28,785 nucleotides of DNA from an uncultured Candidatus Saccharibacteria bacterium (GTDB lineage Bacteria; Patescibacteriota; Minisyncoccia; Phycocordibacterales; JACOZG01): assembly GCA_964564105.1 (NCBI GenBank), contig CAZLZS010000011.1, positions 1-28,785 on the forward strand, in the 5' to 3' direction. Below the pieces are notes generated by a model. That model was not told the DNA's origin. It saw only the letters and a list, made by a program, of their open reading frames with translations, and did no database searches. How positions within the stretch are numbered: position 1 is the stretch's first letter; every line of letters starts with the position of its first letter. Shown here in pieces: positions 6,983-17,911 of the stretch. The translations under genes and the position numbers were made by a program.

Positions 6983-7164
6983 TATGATTCTCCTCATTCA
7001 CTGTATTCAAAGAACTTAATTTACTGGTGACGACAGTCGTCCCAGACCATCTAAATACATACACTATTAATGTTTAAAAGTCAATACTCCCAGAGGGAAC
7101 CGATTTTCGTACACTATAACCAGACGTAAGATAAAACATTACAAGCCTTGTTGCATTAAATTTT

Positions 7165-8319
7165 ATGATTCTTTACGAACACGAGGGCAAAACTTTGCTC
7201 CAATTCGCCGGTATCACTGTTCCTAAGTCGCAATTGTTAACTAAGGAAAACGAATCGGTAACGATGTTTCTACCCTGCGTTCTTAAAGCCCAAACTCTAT
7301 CCGGGAAGAGGGCTAAGGCGGGCTGGATCATTAAAGTTGGAGATAAAAAAGAAATTTTACCGGCCCTGCATCGTCTCTTTGGCCAATCAATCAATGGTGA
7401 ATTAATAAAAAATGTTTTGGTTGAAGAACAGATCCAATATGAGGAGGAATGGTATGTTTCTTTTTCTTATAATCCAGAAACTCGCTGTCCCGTGATCATT
7501 GTTTCTTCTGATGGTGGTTCGGGAGTTGAAGAGCAGGAAAAGATGAAAGAAATTTTCGAGACAGATATTAGAATATCTTCACTGCCGGCTATAGGCGGCT
7601 TACCAGCCATGTTGATGAGTACTTTATTTAAGCTTTTTTTAGACCAAGATTGCCTATTGCTCGAAATAAATCCATTAGTTAAGACGAGTGTCGGTTGGAT
7701 GGCGCTTGATGCTAAAATTAAGTTAGACGATAATGCCTCCAATCGGCATCCCGAGTGGGCTTATACTCCTCGCTTGACATCTGGACACCAGATCACTGAT
7801 AGGGAGATTGCCGCTAAGCAAATAGATCAAGATGACCATCGTGGGACGGCTGGTTCCAGTTATCTTGACCTTGATGGTGACATCGCTGTCCTTGCTTCCG
7901 GCGGCGGGGCGTCGCTGGTCGCTATGGACGCGTTGATTGCGGCTGGTGGTCGGCCAGCAAATTACACTGAATATTCTGGGAATCCACCGCGGGAGAAAGT
8001 GATTAAATTAACCAAGATTGTATTATCAAAGCCGGGTTTACATGGGCTATGGATTGTCGGTGCCTTAGCTAACTTTACCGATATTTATGAAACGCTCTCC
8101 GGAATTATTTCCGGCTTGCGGCAAGCAGAAAAATCTTTAGGTCGAAAATTTGATTTTCCAATTGTAATTCGCCGCGGTGGACCATATGACGAGAAGGCCT
8201 TTGCAATGTTAAAAGAAGTAAAAGATTTTGATCTTACAATTTATGGTCCTACGATTTCTATTGCTGAATCAGCCAAAGCGGTAGTTCAATTATCAAAAGA
8301 TTACGGCAGTCGAGTATGA
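7165..8319 (+). CDS. Succinyl-CoA synthetase beta-subunit-like ATP-grasp protein (AclB/CcsA-like candidate)
   Basis: 384 aa. MILYEHEGKTLLQFAGITVP resembles SucC MNLHEYQAKQLF. Also LLLEINPLV, and DGDIAVLASGGGASLVAMDALIAAGGRPANYTEYSGNPP matching the SucC C-terminal CoA-ligase domain. Confidence 0.8.
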   Translation: MILYEHEGKTLLQFAGITVPKSQLLTKENESVTMFLPCVLKAQTLSGKRAKAGWIIKVGDKKEILPALHRLFGQSINGELIKNVLVEEQIQYEEEWYVSFSYNPETRCPVIIVSSDGGSGVEEQEKMKEIFETDIRISSLPAIGGLPAMLMSTLFKLFLDQDCLLLEINPLVKTSVGWMALDAKIKLDDNASNRHPEWAYTPRLTSGHQITDREIAAKQIDQDDHRGTAGSSYLDLDGDIAVLASGGGASLVAMDALIAAGGRPANYTEYSGNPPREKVIKLTKIVLSKPGLHGLWIVGALANFTDIYETLSGIISGLRQAEKSLGRKFDFPIVIRRGGPYDEKAFAMLKEVKDFDLTIYGPTISIAESAKAVVQLSKDYGSRV

Positions 8320-9218
8320 ATTTACTTTTACCACCAGACAGTCGATTTATTGGTCAAGGTATCACTGGAGCGGAGGGTCGATCTTCTTTGCCGACCATGC
8401 TCCGTTATGGTACTCAATTAGTGGCTGGCGTCACACCCGGTAAGGGTGGTCAAGAGTTGGAAGGAGTACCCATTTTTAATACTGTCAAAGAAGCGATGGC
8501 GGTAGTGGGTCCGGTAAACAGTAGTGTTCAATTTGTTCCACCGCTTTTTACTTTAGCGGCAGTTCAAGAAGCGCTTCAGGCTGGCATAAAATTTATTCTT
8601 ATCGGTGCGGAAAAGGTACCAACTCGTGATACGGCTACCATTATCAGTTTAGCTAAAACTCATCAGGCAACGATTATTGGTCCGAGTTCAGTTGGTCTGA
8701 TTAATCCTAAGAGGAAATTGAAAATCGGAGCGATTGGCGGCAATAATCCAGACAGAGTTTATACCCCGGGTAACATATCGGTTATTTCTAAATCAGGCGG
8801 GATGACTTCGGAAATAAGCTTGCATCTTAAACAGAATGGTTTGGGGGTGAGTTGGGCGGTAGGTATCGGTGGTGATCGGATTATTGGTAGCGATTTTGTT
8901 GACTGGCTCAAAGCACTCGAAAGTGATTCCGAGACAGCCGCCTCAGTCATTTTTGGAGAATTGGGCGGTACTTATGAAGAGGCGGCCGCGGTTGCCGTCC
9001 AGTCTGGCGCAGTGAAGAAACCTGTAATTGCTTTTATCGCCGGAGAGTTTGCCTCGCGTCTTCCCTCGGAGGTGCAATTTGGCCATGCAGGTGCTTTGAT
9101 TGAAGGTGGCCGCGGTCGGCCCGAGCACAAGCGACAAGTGCTGTCCGCGGCCGGTATTCGAGTGGTGAAGCATTTCGACGAGGTCAGCCAGCTAGTTAAA
9201 GAAGCTCTGGGTAAGTAG
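8316..9218 (+). CDS. Succinyl-CoA synthetase alpha-subunit-like CoA-binding protein (AclA N-terminal / CcsB-like candidate)
   Basis: 300 aa. GITGAEGRSS..YGTQLVAGVTPGKGG, GPSSVGLINP, SKSGGMTSE and the phospho-His loop QFGHAGALIEGG align motif-for-motif with SucD. Four-nucleotide overlap with the upstream gene. Confidence 0.85.
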   Translation: MNLLLPPDSRFIGQGITGAEGRSSLPTMLRYGTQLVAGVTPGKGGQELEGVPIFNTVKEAMAVVGPVNSSVQFVPPLFTLAAVQEALQAGIKFILIGAEKVPTRDTATIISLAKTHQATIIGPSSVGLINPKRKLKIGAIGGNNPDRVYTPGNISVISKSGGMTSEISLHLKQNGLGVSWAVGIGGDRIIGSDFVDWLKALESDSETAASVIFGELGGTYEEAAAVAVQSGAVKKPVIAFIAGEFASRLPSEVQFGHAGALIEGGRGRPEHKRQVLSAAGIRVVKHFDEVSQLVKEALGK

Positions 9219-9227
9219 AATATAAAT

Positions 9228-9902
9228 ATGGCGTTGCTAGTCTCTCATCGAGATGAAGAATCATATTTTGGCGATGAACTACAGCTTGATGTCGGTCAAA
9301 AACTTCATTTCGCCGAGATGATTTTTTGGCTCTTGGCGGAACGCCGGCCCACCGCCGCCGAACTGGCAGTATTTGGACTAATTCTTAATCTCTCAATCGA
9401 TCACGGATCCGAGACGCCATCGGCCAAGGCGACTATCGCGGCGACCAAAGCCGGTCATCCGATAAGCGAGGCAGTCGCCTCCGGGATCAAAGAAATCGAT
9501 CATGTTCATGGTGGAGCGCAGGAAGCCTTGATGCCGATCTTGTATCAAATGGTAAAGGGAAATGTGTCCGCCGCGACTATTATTCGGGATTATCTTTTAC
9601 GAAAAGAACGGGTGCCTGGTTTTGGCCATCGACTTTATACTAAGGTAGATCCGCGGGCGGAATTAATCTTAACTACCCTGCAAGCTCACAGTTTAGGTGA
9701 AGAATATATCAAGGCCGGTTGCTCTCTTGGACAAACACTCAAGCAGGTCACTGGTAAAGACTTGCCGTTTAATATCGACGGTGCGATTGCGGTCGCACTC
9801 TGCGCCTTTGATTTCCCTTCAGCGCTCGGTGCTGCTGTGTTCATCGTCGCGCGTACGCCGGGTTTGTGTGCCCATTTTATAAGTAATCGCCCAGAGACTT
9901 AA
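9228..9902 (+). CDS. Citrate synthase-like catalytic (C-terminal) domain protein; citryl-CoA lyase-like
   Basis: 224 aa. HVHGGAQEA (His274-type), PGFGHRLYTKVDPRA (citrate synthase GFGHRVYK..DPRA, His320-type) and NIDGAIAV (Asp375-type) are the three catalytic signature regions of citrate synthase, ACL C-terminus and Ccl. Confidence 0.75.
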   Translation: MALLVSHRDEESYFGDELQLDVGQKLHFAEMIFWLLAERRPTAAELAVFGLILNLSIDHGSETPSAKATIAATKAGHPISEAVASGIKEIDHVHGGAQEALMPILYQMVKGNVSAATIIRDYLLRKERVPGFGHRLYTKVDPRAELILTTLQAHSLGEEYIKAGCSLGQTLKQVTGKDLPFNIDGAIAVALCAFDFPSALGAAVFIVARTPGLCAHFISNRPET

Positions 9903-9941
9903 AAGTTTTTTATTTTTGACCTATGTTATACTGAGGTAACG

Positions 9942-12074
9942 ATGTCATTAAATTCTATTTTGAAATGGGCAATTACGGTCGGGCTCATCGTGCTGACAGC
10001 CGTGCCGCTCTTAGTGTCTGAATCACTCTTTTTCCCCTTCATCACTGGTAAGGGGTTCTTTTTTCGGATTATTATCGAAGTGATTTTTAGCTTGTGGTTG
10101 ATTTTGGCTTTACGCGATCCGGGCTATCGGCCGCGATCGTCCTGGATTTTTAAGGCCGCGGCCGGGTTCATTATTGTGTTGATTCTGGCCACAGTGTTCA
10201 GTGTAAACTCCTACCGCAGTTTCTGGTCAAATTACGAGCGGATGGAGGGTCTGGTGAGTTATCTGCATCTTTTCGCTTTTTTTCTGATTTTGGTTTCGGT
10301 GATGAAAACCGAACGACTCTGGGGCTGGTTTTTGCACAGCTCGCTGGTCGTTAACGCGGTGATCGGCGTCTATTCGCTTTTGCAGCTTGCCGGCAAACTG
10401 GAAATTCATCAAGGCGGCGCGCGCGTGGACGCCACGCTCGGCAACGCCACTTATCTGGCGGTCTATGTATTATTCCATATTTTCCTGTTGAGTTTTTTAC
10501 TTTCCCGTTTGCTTAATGCCGGCCGCTGGCGGAAAGAATTAAGCCAACGTTTGGCCGGCGCTGGTTATTTACTATTATTGATTCTTGATCTGCTCGTGCT
10601 TTTTCAGACTCAAACTCGCGGCGCAATTTTGGGTTTGGTCGGCGGCGTTCTGATCGCCGCCGTCTGGCTGTTTTTATTTTCGCCGCGCGCGACTCGCGCG
10701 CGGCGCTTGGCTTCCGGCTTGATGATTGCGGTTTTAGTTTTGATCAGCGGATTTTTAACGGTCAAAGACACAACTCTGGTACAAAATAGCGCCACCCTCA
10801 AACGTCTAGCGGACATTTCACTGACCGAGCAGACTACTCGCTCGCGCTTCATGGTTTGGAACATGAGTTGGCAGGGATTCAAGGCGCGGCCGGTTTTAGG
10901 TTGGGGGCCGGAGAATTTCATTGTGGTTTTCAACAAATATTACAATCCGTTGATGTATGATCAAGAGCAATGGTTTGACCGCGCCCATAACGTTTTTTTC
11001 GACTGGTTGATCGCCGCCGGTATTTTAGGCCTATTGTCTTACTTGATGCTTTTCGTTGTCGTGATCTACTATCTTTTCAAACTTAGGGGTGGGGGAGGGT
11101 TCAGGGTTAGTGAGCAGGCGATAATTGTCGGCCTGCTCGCTGCTTACTTTCTTCACAACTTTTTTGTCTTTGACCAACTCGTGAGTCTCTTACTATTTTT
11201 TGGTCTTTTGGCCTACCTGCATACGAGATTTGCGATTGATTGGTCAGAACGGGTCAAGCAGTATTTTATGGCGTCAACGTCGCGTTGGCTGGCGACTGCT
11301 GGCGTGATCGCCGCGGTCATTGGTCTGGTGATAGTTTTTTACTTTGTCAATTTGAAACCGGCGTTGGCCTCACGGACTTTGCTTAGTGCTTTAAGTTTGC
11401 AACGTGCTCCAACAGAAAGTCTCAAACGTTTCGAGCGCGTTTTCGCCTACAACACTTTCGGTTCGGCCGAGGCGACCGAGCAATTGATGCCATTATCTTT
11501 GTCGCTTGCCCGGAATCAAGATGTACCGATTGCTCTAAAACAAAAATTTATCAATCTCGCGGCTGAACGTTTAGAGGCCGAGATCAAACGCGCGCCGTGG
11601 AATGCTCGTTACTATCTATTTGCCGGTTCATTTTATCTTCGGATCGGACAAGTTGATTTAGCGCTCGAACGTTTGGAAAAAGCGCGTGAATTGTCGCCGA
11701 CCAAGCAGGCCATTCTTTTTGAACTTGGGCAGGCGTATTTGACTAAGGGTGATAAAACCGCCGCCCTGGAGATTTTCCGTGAGGCCTATGAGTTGGCGCC
11801 CGGTTTTGATCAGGCCAGGGATTACTTAATAAATATGTATGTGGAGATAAAACAGTTCGATAAATTAATAGCTTTATGGCAAGAAAAAGTGGCTCTGGCG
11901 CCGACTAACGCCGATTACCGCGGTTCGCTTGGCCTATCATATTTTTACGCGGGCCAACGCGAGCAGGCAGTGGTTGAATTTCAGAAGGTGGGTGAATTAA
12001 ACCCTGCTTATCAGCCAGAGGTTGAACGGGTAATTCGCGAAATCCGCGCCGGCCGGAATCCTTTGCCTCAATAA
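9942..12074 (+). CDS. Polytopic membrane protein with Wzy_C/O-antigen-ligase-like domain and C-terminal TPR repeats
   Basis: 710 aa with more than 10 predicted TM helices. Wzy_C-type motif FDRAHNVFFDWLIAAGILGLLSYL. The C-terminal ~250 aa are soluble TPR-like repeats (LGQAYLTKGDKTAALEIFREAYELAP...). An extended -10 TGTTATACT (9924-9932) lies 10 nt upstream of the ATG, so the mRNA looks leaderless. Confidence 0.75.
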   Translation: MSLNSILKWAITVGLIVLTAVPLLVSESLFFPFITGKGFFFRIIIEVIFSLWLILALRDPGYRPRSSWIFKAAAGFIIVLILATVFSVNSYRSFWSNYERMEGLVSYLHLFAFFLILVSVMKTERLWGWFLHSSLVVNAVIGVYSLLQLAGKLEIHQGGARVDATLGNATYLAVYVLFHIFLLSFLLSRLLNAGRWRKELSQRLAGAGYLLLLILDLLVLFQTQTRGAILGLVGGVLIAAVWLFLFSPRATRARRLASGLMIAVLVLISGFLTVKDTTLVQNSATLKRLADISLTEQTTRSRFMVWNMSWQGFKARPVLGWGPENFIVVFNKYYNPLMYDQEQWFDRAHNVFFDWLIAAGILGLLSYLMLFVVVIYYLFKLRGGGGFRVSEQAIIVGLLAAYFLHNFFVFDQLVSLLLFFGLLAYLHTRFAIDWSERVKQYFMASTSRWLATAGVIAAVIGLVIVFYFVNLKPALASRTLLSALSLQRAPTESLKRFERVFAYNTFGSAEATEQLMPLSLSLARNQDVPIALKQKFINLAAERLEAEIKRAPWNARYYLFAGSFYLRIGQVDLALERLEKARELSPTKQAILFELGQAYLTKGDKTAALEIFREAYELAPGFDQARDYLINMYVEIKQFDKLIALWQEKVALAPTNADYRGSLGLSYFYAGQREQAVVEFQKVGELNPAYQPEVERVIREIRAGRNPLPQ

Positions 12075-12094
12075 ACGCGTTAGACAGATTTTAG

Positions 12095-12103
12095 TTATCC
12101 ACA
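12095..12103 (+). promoter_or_regulatory. Perfect DnaA-box consensus TTATCCACA
   Basis: Exact 9-mer. One of four identical same-strand copies, all intergenic. This one sits just upstream of the C10 tract and the TATAAT of the 12205 gene. Confidence 0.35.
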
Positions 12104-12113
12104 CTGGCAGTTC

Positions 12114-12123
12114 ACCCCCCCCC
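12114..12123 (+). repeat. Homopolymeric C10 tract in the promoter spacer, followed by a perfect -10 TATAAT (12136-12141)
   Basis: Ten consecutive C at 12114-12123. TATAAT begins 12 nt downstream. The tract occupies the -35/spacer position of the promoter for the secreted-protein gene at 12205. Confidence 0.8.
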
Positions 12124-12204
12124 TTCTTTAGAGAGTATAATTTGCTAAACAGCTTTTATCTAAGCTGGTCGAATTGGTGAATTAAAAATCAAACTAGAAA
12201 TTAA

Positions 12205-12909
12205 ATGATCAAAAATATTCTTAAGGGTTTCCCACGTCTGTTATTTTCGTCTTTACTTTGTCTTTTGGTCTTTGCCTTCTTTACCTATGCCGCGAGTACT
12301 ATTAGTACCAATATCTCAACTGATGGCACTTTAACCGTCAACGGCAATTCGACTTTTGGCGATGCGGCAACGGATGTTAATTTATTCACCGGGACGCTGC
12401 AGGCTTCAACCACTGCCTTGTTTACAAGCGGATTTACGACTTTTGGCGCTTCAGTTTTTAACGAAAACAGCGGGGCGCTTGACTTCCGGGTGGAAAGTGA
12501 CGGTCAAGCCAACATGCTGTACGTTGATGGAACCAATGATAGGGTTGGCATTGCCAGTAGTACGCCATATGTGGCTTTAGGGGTAGTTGGAACGACTACT
12601 TCAAGTCTCGGCATGAGAATTGGGGCCACCGGATCAGGTATTACTCAACTGTATTTTGGTACTTGTTCTGTCAATTTGCCCAATATTACAGCTAGCAGTA
12701 CGGCCTCAGCTGACTGCACAGCGACCGGAGTTAATCTGGGTGACAAAGTTTTTGTTACTCCGGCCAGTTTAGAGAATCACGTTGTTTTCACTAGCGCTTC
12801 CACGACAGCGGCTGATACGATTCAGGTAAGTGCTTATAATTACGGCGGTGGTCAAGGCACCGCGGTTAATCCGGCCGCGGCGACTTGGTCCTGGATGGCA
12901 GTACGGTAA
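12205..12909 (+). CDS. Secreted Thr/Ser/Gly-rich beta-rich protein (surface protein/adhesin-like), hypothetical
   Basis: 234 aa. N-terminal signal peptide MIKNILKGFPRLLFSSLLCLLVFAFFTYAAS. Low-complexity T/S/G-rich mature region. Confidence 0.6.
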   Translation: MIKNILKGFPRLLFSSLLCLLVFAFFTYAASTISTNISTDGTLTVNGNSTFGDAATDVNLFTGTLQASTTALFTSGFTTFGASVFNENSGALDFRVESDGQANMLYVDGTNDRVGIASSTPYVALGVVGTTTSSLGMRIGATGSGITQLYFGTCSVNLPNITASSTASADCTATGVNLGDKVFVTPASLENHVVFTSASTTAADTIQVSAYNYGGGQGTAVNPAAATWSWMAVR

Positions 12910-12931
12910 TTTCTTTCGCCCTATAATCTTC

Positions 12932-13891
12932 ATGAAAAATGCCTATCTAATCATCTTTTTGTGTCTGACTTTATTTTCTTTGCCGTTAGCCGGTTTTGCC
13001 GCTTACAATGATGTTACTTTAACCACAGACGCGAAAATTACCGCTGGCGGAGCCACTCTCGATGTCACGACCTCGAGTGCGGTGTTAGAGTCTATAATTG
13101 TCAATGCTAGCAATTTTGTAGTGACTCTAGTTTCTTCTGGCACCGGATTGTCGTCAATTCGAGTGTCGTCACCCAATAGATACAAGCTTAATCATTCTGT
13201 TAGCCCAACCTCGGCTTATGTTGTGGCTGATGAATGCAATACTGGTGCTTCAGTAGTTGAGTTTAAGGCGCTTTCCGGTATCAACATAAATGTTACCGTG
13301 ACTCCTGATACAACCCTTACTTGTTCCGGGTCCGGGAGTGGCAGTGGTAGTACCGGCGGCGGTGGCGGTGGTGGTTCAACACCGCCGCCAGCGACTCCGT
13401 CAGCGGTTCCTCCAGTCCCGCCAGTCGTGGTACCGCCAGTGATTCCGCCGCCGTTTGTGGCCCAACCGTCAGCCGTGGCCTTGGCGGTTTCGCCGGTCTT
13501 TAATCGGACCTTGCAGTTTGGTATGGTTGGCGAGGATGTTAAACGTTTGCAGGAGTTGCTAAATTCTGATCCGGAAACCTTAGTGGCGGTTTCTGACGCT
13601 GGCTCGCCGGGCAATGAGACAGACTTTTTCGGTAATTTGTCTCGCCGGGCAGTGGGCAAGTTCCAGCTTAAATATTCCGTGATCGCGAGTGAAGAAGATA
13701 ACGGTTATGGCATTGTTGGTCCCAGAACCCGCGCCAAACTGGCTGAAGTGTTTGGCGGCCAAATCGGGCCGGCGCCGATTCCTGAATTTCAGACTGCCGC
13801 CGTGGCCATCCTGCAAGCCGAACTTCGGCAACTATTGGAGCAGTTAGCGATTTTGTTGCAAGCTCAATTGCGATCTCTAACCGGGCAGTAA
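12932..13891 (+). CDS. Secreted protein with Gly/Ser/Pro-rich linker and C-terminal PG_binding_1 (peptidoglycan-binding) domain
   Basis: The ORF track starts at 12830, but that overlaps the upstream gene. The signal peptide MKNAYLIIFLCLTLFSLPLAGFA begins at ATG 12932. A GSGSGS-G8-PPP linker follows. The C-terminal LQFGMVGEDVKRLQELLN..DGIVGPRTRAKL fits PG_binding_1. Confidence 0.65.
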   Translation: MKNAYLIIFLCLTLFSLPLAGFAAYNDVTLTTDAKITAGGATLDVTTSSAVLESIIVNASNFVVTLVSSGTGLSSIRVSSPNRYKLNHSVSPTSAYVVADECNTGASVVEFKALSGININVTVTPDTTLTCSGSGSGSGSTGGGGGGGSTPPPATPSAVPPVPPVVVPPVIPPPFVAQPSAVALAVSPVFNRTLQFGMVGEDVKRLQELLNSDPETLVAVSDAGSPGNETDFFGNLSRRAVGKFQLKYSVIASEEDNGYGIVGPRTRAKLAEVFGGQIGPAPIPEFQTAAVAILQAELRQLLEQLAILLQAQLRSLTGQ

Positions 13892-13904
13892 TCCCCAATC
13901 GAGA

Positions 13905-13932
13905 TTGACATAAACTCGGCCGTAAGTATAAT
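13905..13932 (+). promoter_or_regulatory. Consensus sigma70 promoter (TTGACA-N16-TATAAT)
   Basis: TTGACA at 13905-13910, a 16-nt spacer, TATAAT at 13927-13932. Predicted transcription start near 13939. Confidence 0.55.
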
Positions 13933-13938
13933 GGCTAA

Positions 13939-14169
13939 CGTGGGTGCTTTTGAGCGGCGCAAGCTGTTCAGAGCTCCAAGAATATAGATGTCTTGCGTAA
14001 GTCCCGCCTTTCGGCGGGATTTGCGTCTATGGACGCCGAAGAGCTATAATACAGGCGATCGTGCCGAGTTGCCGCCGGCGGTCGCACTCACATTAAGACA
14101 TTTAGCTTTTGGAGCTCGCACCCGCCGGCGACATCTGGGCAGGCATGCCGATTTAATCAATTCTAAATT
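13939..14169 (+). ncRNA. Candidate structured leader RNA (riboswitch-like or cis-regulatory sRNA), ~230 nt, class unknown
   Basis: Starts at the predicted TSS of the consensus promoter. Concentric long-range helices: GGGTGC (13943-48) with GCACCC (14114-19); GAGCTCCAA (13970-78) with TTGGAGCTC (14105-13); GATGTCTT (13989-96) with AAGACATT (14089-96). They enclose local hairpins CCCGCC-TTTC-GGCGGG, GCGTC-TATG-GACGC and GCCGCCGGCGG. No ORF of 60 aa or more. Confidence 0.3.
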
Positions 14170-14325
14170 ATGCGTTACACTTGGACCTCGGTCGCCATTC
14201 TCTTTATCTGGATTTCCGCTTCGATTTTGATGGTCTCTAATCGTCTGCCGGATCCGGAGCTGTTTTTCGTCTTTTTGATGGCGATTACTGTGATTCTGGC
14301 TCTGATCGGTTTTCGTTCTAAATAG
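14170..14325 (+). CDS. Small two-TM membrane peptide (51 aa), paralog of the 17730..17897 peptide
   Basis: ATG 14170; the TAG stop abuts the ATG of the next gene (TAGATG). MRYTWTSVAILFIWISASILMVSNRLPDPELFFVFLMAITVILALIGFRSK. Shares a ..IWI.. core and the C-terminal LIGFRS with the second copy, including a 16-nt identical DNA stretch GATCGGTTTTCGTTCT. Absent from the ORF track because it is shorter than 60 aa. Confidence 0.5.
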   Translation: MRYTWTSVAILFIWISASILMVSNRLPDPELFFVFLMAITVILALIGFRSK

Positions 14326-15888
14326 ATGTGGCTTAGTCGGACGCTTCGTTTTTTTCAGCGGCTGATTAAAATCAAGCTGATAATTTTGCGGCTGGCGTTT
14401 GATTGGCGGACCTCTCGGCCGGTACGTTTTCGGATGTTTTTCGAGCGCGCCGGCGGCGCGTTTTTGAAATTTGGTCAGATCCTTTCGCTCCGGCACGATT
14501 TCATCCCGCCGGCTTACGCCAACGAGCTGCTCAATCTCCTGTCGCGCGTGGAGCCGCAGCCGTGGTCGGCCTTGCGCGAGGTCTTTATCGCCGAGATTGG
14601 CGCGCCGCCGGAAAAAGTGTTTCAGCAATTTGATAACCAGCCGATCGCTTCGGCCTCGATCTCGCAAGTTTATCGCGCCGTCTTGCCGGGAGGAGAAACA
14701 GTCGCCGTTAAGATTCAGCGCCCGGGGATCCGCGAAGTGTTTGAAACTGATTTTATTCTGGCCTCATTTCTCGGCGGTCTCTTGTCGATTTTTCGTTTTT
14801 TCGATTCCTTTCAGATTCAAGATATTGTCAGCGAATTTATTTCCGCCACGCGGCGCGAGCTTGATTTCCGAGAAGAATCGAAAAATTCGTTGGCTCTCTT
14901 AGCTCACTCGAGCGAGCATCCCCAAACCATTATCCCCAAATGTTACTCGGAGCTCTCGACCGAGCGGGTGCTGGTGAGCGAATACATGTCCGAGATTTTG
15001 TCAGTGGAAACAGTGCTCGAGCGGCTCGCAGTCAATCTCGGTTATGCCGCCGAGCTTAAAGAGCATCAGCGGATTGATCTTGAAGCCCTGGCCTATTATT
15101 TCGTTTTTGACATTATGCGGCAGTATTTCATCGACGGCTTTTTTCACGCTGATCCGCATCCGGCTAATCTCTTTCTTGCGCCGGACAATCGTTTGGGTTA
15201 TTTTGATTTTGGCATTATCGGGCGGGCAGGCAAGAATCGCCTCGACCTACTCCGAATCATCTACGGTATCGCTAAACGCGATCTCAATTTTTCGAGCCGA
15301 CATTTCCTCCGTTTCGCCAAGAGTGCGATTGCCAAAGAAATGGAGCTCTTCAAGCAGAAAGATCGGACCACTTACGATCGTTACGCCAAAGTGCTCGAGA
15401 AACTGGAAGAAATTATGACCGACAATCTGCACGCCGATCTCGAAAAGATTCTCGCGCCCTGGTACCAAGATCAATCTTCTCGCGATTATCATCATTTGAC
15501 CTCTTCTATCGTTATTTCCAAAATGATCCTCCGAGCTCGGGACTACAGTATCTATTTGCCGCGTGAGATCATTATGTTTTTCCGTACTTTGATTATTTCC
15601 GATATGGTTGCTCTGCGCCTGGCGCCAAATTTTAACATTATGAAAGCACTCAATCGCTTTTTTGATCGTTATCCGCTCGGTGTGGCCGAGGAGTTGATCA
15701 CGGCGCGGGTCCACGAAGCTAAACTCGAAGAAACAGTGGACGCGGCCGCGCACCTGAGTTTTGAAGAACTGTTGGCGCAGAAGGAAGCCGAGCAAGAAGA
15801 ATTGAGTCTGGCCAAGGAGCGCCTAATCAATCTGATTGCCGCTTACGCCGAGGATTATCAGGAGGTTCGCCAGTTGCTGAAGACTTAG
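14326..15888 (+). CDS. UbiB/ABC1/AarF-family atypical protein kinase
   Basis: 520 aa. FLKFGQILSLRHDFIPPAYANEL, IASASISQVYRAVLPGGETVAVKIQRPGI and HADPHPANLF are the ABC1/UbiB kinase-like signature motifs. Confidence 0.85.
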   Translation: MWLSRTLRFFQRLIKIKLIILRLAFDWRTSRPVRFRMFFERAGGAFLKFGQILSLRHDFIPPAYANELLNLLSRVEPQPWSALREVFIAEIGAPPEKVFQQFDNQPIASASISQVYRAVLPGGETVAVKIQRPGIREVFETDFILASFLGGLLSIFRFFDSFQIQDIVSEFISATRRELDFREESKNSLALLAHSSEHPQTIIPKCYSELSTERVLVSEYMSEILSVETVLERLAVNLGYAAELKEHQRIDLEALAYYFVFDIMRQYFIDGFFHADPHPANLFLAPDNRLGYFDFGIIGRAGKNRLDLLRIIYGIAKRDLNFSSRHFLRFAKSAIAKEMELFKQKDRTTYDRYAKVLEKLEEIMTDNLHADLEKILAPWYQDQSSRDYHHLTSSIVISKMILRARDYSIYLPREIIMFFRTLIISDMVALRLAPNFNIMKALNRFFDRYPLGVAEELITARVHEAKLEETVDAAAHLSFEELLAQKEAEQEELSLAKERLINLIAAYAEDYQEVRQLLKT

Positions 15889-15896
15889 ATAATTTG

Positions 15897-15905
15897 TGTT
15901 ATAAT
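15897..15905 (+). promoter_or_regulatory. Extended -10 element TGTTATAAT
   Basis: Identical 9-mer to the one at 21490. It ends 8 nt before ATG 15913, so the mRNA looks leaderless. Confidence 0.4.
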
Positions 15906-15912
15906 CAAGGTT

Positions 15913-16899: not shown

Positions 16900-17733
16900 A
16901 TGAACAAGGAAATTTTGGAGAAGCTAAAAACATATTTTGAAAACCGCGACGAGGTCGTAATGGCGTTTCTTTTCGGCTCACGGGCCGAGGGGCGGGCACG
17001 GAACGATTCTGACTGGGATATCGGTGTGTACTTTAGACCGAAGACCAAGGGAGAATTGGAAACAAAAGAACGGTATACAGGCGAGAGTGAAATTTCTGGC
17101 GAGGTGGCGCGGCTTCTCGGCGCGGAAACTGATGTCGTCGTTCTTAATCGCGCCCGCCCGTCGCTCGTATTTGACGTGCTCAATTCGGGGAAAATCCTCG
17201 CCAACAAGGATGAAACATTGTACCTGGAACTGCTCTCAAAAACTCACTACGAAGCCGTTGACTACTGGAATTTCGTGAAAGAATTTTGGGATATCAGACA
17301 ACAAGCCGCGTCGCTGACCCCTAAAGCCAGGGCATTTCTTGCGGAGCATTTAACGTTTCTTGAAAACGAGTTTGCCGATTTTCCAAAATTTCAGAACCTC
17401 TCGTGGAAGGAGTACCAAGAAAACCGAAGCCAGCGGCGAGAGATTGAGCGCTGGGTAGAAAATGTTGTAATGAGCTTAATTGATATTGCAAAGGTCATTC
17501 TTGCCTCCGAGAAAAAAGATGTGCCGCAGACCTATAACGAGACAATCAAACGATTTGCGATTTCTTTTACCGATGAGAAGGCAGCTGAAAAATTGGCGGA
17601 GTTTGCCGAATTGAGAAATTTAGTAGTGCATGAATACCTTGATTTAAGATTCGCGCGCATTAAAAGGTTTATTGAAGAAGCGGAGACGCAATTGCCTCCG
17701 ATTATTGAGAAGATTAAAGAAATTATAAAATGA
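16900..17733 (+). CDS. Fused minimal nucleotidyltransferase (MNT) + HEPN domain protein (MntA-HepT-like single-chain module)
   Basis: 277 aa. N-terminal MNT motif LFGSRAEGRARNDSDWDIGVYF (GS-x9-10-D-x-D). C-terminal HEPN R-x4-H-x-Y motif AELRNLVVHEY. Confidence 0.75.
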   Translation: MNKEILEKLKTYFENRDEVVMAFLFGSRAEGRARNDSDWDIGVYFRPKTKGELETKERYTGESEISGEVARLLGAETDVVVLNRARPSLVFDVLNSGKILANKDETLYLELLSKTHYEAVDYWNFVKEFWDIRQQAASLTPKARAFLAEHLTFLENEFADFPKFQNLSWKEYQENRSQRREIERWVENVVMSLIDIAKVILASEKKDVPQTYNETIKRFAISFTDEKAAEKLAEFAELRNLVVHEYLDLRFARIKRFIEEAETQLPPIIEKIKEIIK

Positions 17734-17902: not shown

Positions 17903-17911
17903 TTATCCACA
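17903..17911 (+). promoter_or_regulatory. Perfect DnaA-box consensus TTATCCACA
   Basis: Exact 9-mer 6 nt after the small peptide stop. Followed by TTGGTG-N17-TAATTT, a -35/-10-like arrangement. Confidence 0.35.

Follow-up and report, generated by a model that had tools for sequence, protein, structure and literature searches.

A nine-cytosine tract in the predicted promoter of a Patescibacteria-specific surface-type protein gene: a candidate slippage-tunable element beside a DnaA-box-like motif

A run of nine cytosines (C9, positions 12115-12123 on the + strand of the 28,785-nt stretch of DNA analysed here, hereafter the window) is a real, non-random feature of the promoter of a gene for a Patescibacteria-specific 234-aa protein with the marks of a secreted or surface product. 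The DNA comes from an uncultured, Candidatus Vogelbacteria-like groundwater member of the candidate phyla radiation. By analogy with known bacterial switches the tract may be a slippage-tunable promoter element of the phase-variation or 'rheostat' kind, a reading to which we give a probability of about 40%. For that reading we infer that a conserved box upstream of the tract binds an activator, that the length of the tract varies, and that this length affects expression.

The original prediction had named ten cytosines at 12114-12123; direct reading of the sequence gives nine, at 12115-12123, since position 12114 is an A. Its placement of the tract between a DnaA-box-like motif and a perfect TATAAT is borne out, both motifs being exact matches: the TTATCCACA box (12095-12103, +), identical to the DnaA-box consensus, ends 11 nt ahead of the tract, and the tract ends 12 nt ahead of the -10 hexamer TATAAT (12136-12141, +), which thus lies 32 nt past the end of the box. 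The elements follow one another as TTTTAG TTATCCACA CTGGCAGTTCA CCCCCCCCC TTCTTTAGAGAG TATAAT, 64 nt 5' of the 234-aa open reading frame (ORF), whose ATG begins at 12205. When TATAAT is set at -12 to -7, with a predicted transcription start at about 12148, the box, a conserved upstream promoter element, falls at about -53 to -45, and C9 spans about -33 to -25; the tract thus takes the canonical -35 position and the upstream half of the spacer, just as had been proposed. At this promoter our scan called no sigma-70-type -35/-10 pair 16-18 nt apart. A putative weak -35, TTCACC (12111-12116, +; four of six matches, 19 nt to the -10), overlaps the first two cytosines of the tract. Elsewhere in the window the longest run of C or G is six, and a second-order Markov model of the window yields an expectation of ~0.011 such runs of at least nine; we therefore regard C9 as real and not as a product of chance. 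In its length and over-representation, and in lying between a putative activator site and the -10 of a predicted promoter, the tract corresponds to the repeats of contingency loci.

No intrinsic terminator and no stable structure was found between the upstream stop codon and C9. The 5' leader past the -10 is predicted, as the minimum-free-energy structure, to fold into a hairpin (CAGCUU-UUAUCU-AAGCUG) followed by GGTCGA (12150-12172, +). The hairpin element CAGCTTTTA..AGCTGGTCGAA recurs in the upstream regions of three related loci (L021, L022 and L026), and GGTCGA-like words also occur in the leaders of several genes of the 234-aa family and 5' of secA (window ~18000).

We call the C9 region a promoter because the box and the -10 are conserved across related loci. 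These loci, orthologous or paralogous to the 234-aa gene, came from exact-protein look-ups (L001-L003), species-representative genomes (L004-L012) and metagenomes (L013-L055), and the de-duplicated set together with the window amounts to 249 kb. Perfect copies of TTATCCACA number 40 in this DNA versus ~1.9 expected, about one per 6 kb; 35 of the 40 are intergenic, though intergenic sequence makes up only 12% of the DNA, and the majority are oriented toward the downstream gene. At ~35 of the 48 real family loci a gene-oriented box with zero or one mismatch precedes a -10-like hexamer. Measured for all perfect boxes of the set, a strong -10 match lies 25-33 nt past the end of the box in 17 of 33 cases (P ~1e-5 versus a uniform distribution), with a second cluster among related promoters at 40-43 nt; the 32 nt of the C9 promoter is the family mode. 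A ~10-nt periodicity in these distances is marginal (P ~0.03-0.05, uncorrected) and is given no weight here. The window itself has four copies of the box, all intergenic and all on the + strand, the three others standing at 17903 (5' of secA), 23589 and 27070 (5' of an NYN-domain gene). Some relatives have textbook promoters just past the box (TTGACA-17-TAAACT in L011, TTGACT-18-TATAAT in L035, TTGTGT-16-TAAAAT in L012 and TTGCTA-16-TAGAAT in L036), and many other family promoters, like that of the window, have no recognisable -35. From this pattern of conservation C9 would belong to a genuine promoter that has no good -35 and is probably activator-dependent.

The box is the 9-mer known as the high-affinity DnaA box of Escherichia coli and agrees with the consensus TTATNCACA. 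The clustering of boxes typical of a replication origin or a dnaA promoter is not seen here: the boxes are single and 5-6 kb apart, at unrelated genes. Because the window holds neither dnaA nor dnaN, and because its cumulative GC skew is monotonic, without reversal, we do not take them for origin boxes. DnaA-regulated promoters use the same 9-mer, but here single boxes precede many unrelated genes without an origin context. A highly conserved protein presumably binds the motif, with DnaA the obvious candidate, and the distribution of TTATCCACA suggests a promoter-proximal signal of general use in the candidate phyla radiation; our literature search found no paper linking the motif to Patescibacteria promoters. 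We also considered that it might be a DNA-uptake sequence, and set this aside in view of its fixed distance to the -10 and its conservation across very distant lineages.

Long G/C tracts recur in the promoters of related genes. A G9 adjoins TACAAT in L003, L004 and L013, another lies within the TTGTGT-16-TAAAAT spacer of L012, and another adjoins ACAAT in L031; L036 and L040 have a G8 directly past the box, L017 a G7 ahead of TTACAAT, and L025 a G6, where the window has C9. Tracts of G7-G9 or C9 are thus found in six independent orthologous promoters, at varying positions and on either strand. Since orthologues from the tract-bearing lineages share only 33-57% amino-acid identity, and since strand and position differ, we conclude that the tracts arose independently; and since the sequence, strand and position of the recurring tract are unfixed, its role would lie in length or mutability and not in a recognition sequence. 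The enrichment is local. In the 249 kb there are 14 runs of G or C of at least 7, six of which fall within 120 nt 5' of a gene of the 234-aa family. Runs of length 6, 7, 8 and 9 number 34, 6, 2 and 5, an excess at length nine, where extrapolation gives ~0.35 against the five observed. Runs of at least 7 are found in 10% of the 45-nt intervals that follow a box and in 0.8% of control intergenic windows, a ~12-fold difference that holds although the post-box intervals are the more AT-rich (36% GC versus 42% in the controls).

Long tracts were also seen inside coding sequence. At L005 (7045-9931) a large surface-repeat protein is in two frames, a signal-peptide ORF (7045-7488) and an 890-aa body from 7259, and the frame break sits at a C15/C8/C7 poly-C region coding for a Pro-rich linker; the split may mark a pseudogene or an assembly error at the homopolymer, or else a phase-variation switch that acts in translation and is OFF here. 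At L011 a G9 (9537-9545) encodes Gly-Gly-Gly inside a sugar-transferase gene (9069-10094, minus strand) beside a Wzy_C/TPR gene, a classic placement for slippage-controlled glycosyltransferases.

The gene behind the C9 promoter (12205-12909, +) encodes a 234-aa protein with 221 homologues, which belong to Patescibacteria wherever they are named (e.g., Pacebacteria, Taylorbacteria, Kaiserbacteria). In its AlphaFold2 model a hydrophobic N-terminal helix spans residues 2-35 and a beta-sandwich covers ~140-234 at pLDDT above 90. Across an alignment of 22 homologues the N-terminus is variable and hydrophobic, the mature part starts with a conserved 'ATTISTNISTDGTLTV', and Thr/Ser-rich repeats lead into a conserved C-terminal domain with two invariant cysteines and a terminal W-x-WMAIR. 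The description of the cargo as a signal-peptide-bearing, Thr/Ser-rich protein is matched by this hydrophobic N-terminal helix and by a Ser+Thr content of 25%, from which, with the model, a surface location would follow. No family in Pfam or NCBIfam matches the protein, and in a fold search of the PDB only the HK620 tailspike matched, weakly and in its C-terminal domain, from which nothing about function follows. The product may reasonably be taken as a secreted or surface protein, an assignment that we keep provisional because the sole structural match is weak and neither Pfam nor NCBIfam holds a family for it. The cargo is then of the surface type expected at a contingency locus, by its signal/anchor helix, its Ser+Thr content, its two-Cys beta-sandwich and its Wzy_C-like and peptidoglycan-binding-like neighbours. 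A type IV pilin, likewise built of a long N-terminal helix and a disulfide-bonded beta domain, was considered and rejected, since a G/FxxxE prepilin motif is not conserved in the family.

Upstream, a Wzy_C (O-antigen-ligase-like) membrane protein with C-terminal TPR repeats (9942-12074, +; Pfam) ends with its stop codon 20 nt 5' of the box, and the same neighbour is found in L001, L002 and L011. Downstream lies a gene (12932-13891, +) whose product combines a signal peptide, a Pro-rich linker and a peptidoglycan-binding-like domain (weak Pfam match to PG_binding_1); this gene has syntenic counterparts in L003, L005 and L057 and is probably in the same transcription unit as the 234-aa gene. Farther out are an ABC1 kinase (14326-15888, +) and, on the other side, three ATP-citrate-lyase-like genes (7165-9902, +) encoding an ATP-grasp and citrate-binding protein, a CoA-ligase alpha-like protein and a citrate-synthase C-terminal domain, a set that resembles a split ATP-citrate lyase or citryl-CoA system. 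The only match in an Rfam scan was a tRNA-Asn. Two further genes of the window drew our attention: an 851-aa protein (24195-26750) combines a major-vault-protein Shoulder domain, Vault_3 repeats and a Band_7/SPFH domain, unusual for a bacterium with a very small genome, and a single 277-aa ORF (16900-17733) joins a nucleotidyltransferase (Polbeta/MNT-like) to a HepT-like RNase domain and looks like a toxin-antitoxin pair in one polypeptide.

Other copies of the C9 locus itself were sought in several ways. Exact-protein look-ups gave no match for the 234-aa protein, the upstream Wzy-like protein or the downstream peptidoglycan-binding protein; a pattern of the exact flanks with a variable gap found no match to the locus in the metagenome collection; and a cluster look-up with the Wzy-like protein returned unrelated short fragments only. 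Looking up the citrate-synthase-like neighbour led to four short Logan contigs of the same organism (SRR12113384, SRR12113420, SRR12113422 and SRR12113430), none of which reaches C9. The collections searched thus gave no second copy of C9. A contig from a Candidatus Vogelbacteria MAG (L057; JACOZH010000019.1, assembly GCA_016181435.1) is 99.78% identical to window 12270-15909, and it starts inside the 234-aa gene, at window 12270, ~147 nt 3' of C9; strain heterogeneity in the promoter or 5' region may have caused the contig to break there.

Near-identical copies of the orthologous promoters do not differ in tract length. L003, L013 and L004 are 100% identical contigs with G9 in all three assemblies, and L036 and L040, 99.5% identical, both have G8; in either comparison these are consensus assemblies in which minority alleles are invisible. 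L020 (309-431) and L025 are 99.87% identical, and their one difference in 768 nt falls inside the G tract beside the TACAAT -10 (GGGGTG versus GGGGGG), a substitution and not an indel; a T-to-G change within a G run is a known type of Illumina error. Between species, tracts of 6, 7, 8 and 9 are found and some are interrupted or replaced, as in L037, which has GGAGGGGTG at the site of the G8 of L036. The closest relative of the window, the co-occurring L056 (Logan SRR12113383), is 96% identical in coding sequence from window 12232 onward, and its promoter reads GTTATCCACT-tccaCTTCTTCTTCTTCTggtt-TATAAT, with a (CTT)4-5 repeat where the window has C9. Comparison with related genomes had been suggested as a check: G/C tracts do recur in orthologous promoters, and the closest relative carries a trinucleotide repeat instead. 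The upstream gene of L056 is only 77% identical to its window counterpart. Since both the promoter and the upstream gene diverge, the segment spanning promoter and signal peptide stands out as a hot spot of divergence among strains. Alignment of L056 1075-1205 with window 12075-12232 indicates that a recombination boundary lies close to where the gene starts.

If the tract is slippage-tunable, the promoter would work in three parts: the conserved TTATCCACA box at about -50, presumably bound by a highly conserved protein; the homopolymer, standing in for the -35 and the upstream spacer; and the perfect -10, driving the Patescibacteria-specific secreted or surface protein. Slipped-strand mispairing at C9 during replication would add or remove cytosines, each change would move the box and the weak TTCACC -35 nearer to or farther from the -10 and alter their helical phase relative to it, and with this geometry the surface-protein operon would be transcribed more or less strongly, a change both heritable and reversible. 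The turnover resembles that of simple repeats, with (CTT)4-5 in L056 at the place of C9 and a similar contrast between L037 and L036, and long tracts occur in other surface-related genes (the C15/C8 of L005, the G9 of L011); both points favour slippage, whereas for slippage at high frequency a tract of nine is rather short. Phase variation, the core of the original prediction, thus gains from the promoter anatomy, the recurrence of tracts and their ~12-fold enrichment, and loses from near-identical orthologous copies that show no differences in length.

Support for a slippage-tunable promoter also comes from the resemblance of the box/homopolymer/-10 architecture to the fim promoters of Bordetella. 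There a 'fim box' is joined to a 'C-stretch' in which one base more or less alters transcription, and transcript abundance differs 3.8-fold between the C7 and C8 alleles of fimX (PMC1891110; PMC10172299). Like the BvgA-dependent fim2, fim3 and fimX of Bordetella pertussis, the promoter studied here has an upstream box, a poly-C run in the -35/spacer region, a -10 and a surface-type cargo, and its geometry is of the fim type, with the box-to-(-10) distance of 32 nt at the family mode and no -35/-10 pair of 16-18 nt. The fim3 tracts are longer (C13-C18) and their length polymorphism is demonstrated, whereas the window has C9, and near-identical copies of orthologous tracts showed no polymorphism in length. 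The two boxes are unrelated in sequence, the fim box being bound by a response regulator, BvgA, that contacts RNA polymerase; the resemblance is an analogy of mechanism and not homology.

The comparison originally made, with Neisseria and Haemophilus, is a reasonable one, although the fim promoters, with their activator box, C-stretch and -10, come closer. At porA, opc and fetA of Neisseria meningitidis and hif of Haemophilus influenzae, homopolymer or dinucleotide repeats in the -35/-10 spacer alter its length and with it promoter strength for surface proteins. Those promoters have a recognisable -35 and tracts of 10-14 or more units, whereas here there is no clear -35, the place of which the box may take. 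In Mycoplasma, the vlp genes of M. hyorhinis have poly-A in the promoter spacer and the vlhA genes of M. gallisepticum have GAA repeats 5' of the promoter. These surface-lipoprotein switches share with our case a setting in reduced-genome, host-dependent bacteria with simple repeats near the promoters of surface proteins, and the (CTT)n of L056 at the C9 site, read as (AAG)n, adds to the likeness. They differ in the type and length of the repeat, and their variation is proven experimentally.

Among the other explanations weighed, a static role for the tract is possible but doubtful in our judgement. The run would then be a fixed, non-switching G/C part of box-dependent promoters, either a stiff GC stretch or a G-rich element adjacent to the -10, with a role in promoter strength or in helping the box-binding protein or the sigma factor; it would differ in length among species and be stable within populations. 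The equal tract lengths of replicate assemblies agree with this, as does the frequency of GGG or GGGG just 5' of the -10 (e.g., in L037, L015, L027, L044 and at window 17903), and G/C runs are enriched past the box generally, beyond the 234-aa family, as shown by a C6 at L004 10306. The tract is, however, sometimes C and sometimes G on the coding strand and occupies three places (directly past the box, mid-spacer and adjoining the -10), and this variability of strand and position disfavours a sequence-specific element; the tract is moreover missing in L056 and in many orthologues whose promoters are otherwise similar. Since the box-to-(-10) distance with C9 in place already equals the family mode, the tract may also be mere filler. 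That it is a neutral by-product of slippage in poorly constrained intergenic DNA, in a small genome with limited repair and with no regulatory effect, seems to us unlikely. Such an origin would explain why the C9 is not kept in L056, why the position of the tract differs among orthologues and why many family promoters work without one; our search of the literature on mismatch repair in Patescibacteria found nothing usable. It fits poorly with an enrichment of ~12-fold that is specific to the interval between box and -10, as compared with other intergenic DNA and in spite of lower GC, with the bump in run lengths at nine, and with the fact that six of at most nine intergenic runs of at least 7 fall in the promoter class of the 234-aa family.

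We regard as very improbable that C9 acts in RNA as a Rho-utilisation site, a C-rich unstructured stretch past the Wzy_C/TPR stop codon that would end the upstream transcript. The region 12040-12135 is indeed less structured than all 200 of its shuffles (z = +2.2), cytosines outnumber guanines by 19 to 11 in 12075-12135, and our scan found no intrinsic terminator; but the orthologous tracts are G and not C on the transcribed strand, C9 is flanked by a conserved box and a perfect -10, and nine cytosines are far below the typical length of a rut region. Scarcely credible, finally, is an assembly or sequencing artefact at the homopolymer: unique sequence lies on both flanks of C9, and equivalent tracts are repeated exactly in independent assemblies, lineages and projects. 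These outweigh two observations on the other side, namely that the L057 contig, 99.78% identical to the window, begins ~147 nt 3' of C9, and that the L020/L025 difference in a G run is of the Illumina error type.

In Neisseria, Haemophilus, Bordetella and Mycoplasma the use of promoter homopolymers for contingency switching is well known; our literature search found no report of such a switch in the candidate phyla radiation. For bacteria of this radiation a life attached to host cells is assumed, and to our knowledge almost nothing is known of how their surfaces are regulated or varied. We think it quite unlikely, though worth stating, that the arrangement is a lineage-wide architecture of Patescibacteria in which a universal activator, perhaps DnaA in the role of a global transcription factor of these small genomes, is recruited by TTATCCACA placed ~30 nt or one helical turn more 5' of the -10, and hypermutable G/C tracts between box and -10 serve as switches of surface proteins; were it so, this episymbiotic radiation would gain its first example of phase variation. 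The more unusual by-product of the analysis is TTATCCACA itself as a putative radiation-wide promoter-proximal motif, which may aid promoter annotation and raises the question of DnaA as a global regulator. If C9 is a slippage-tunable promoter element, environmental symbionts would share the contingency-locus strategy of mucosal pathogens and mycoplasmas, and homopolymer-tuned promoters of this widespread, uncharacterised family of secreted proteins would point to candidate host-interaction proteins.
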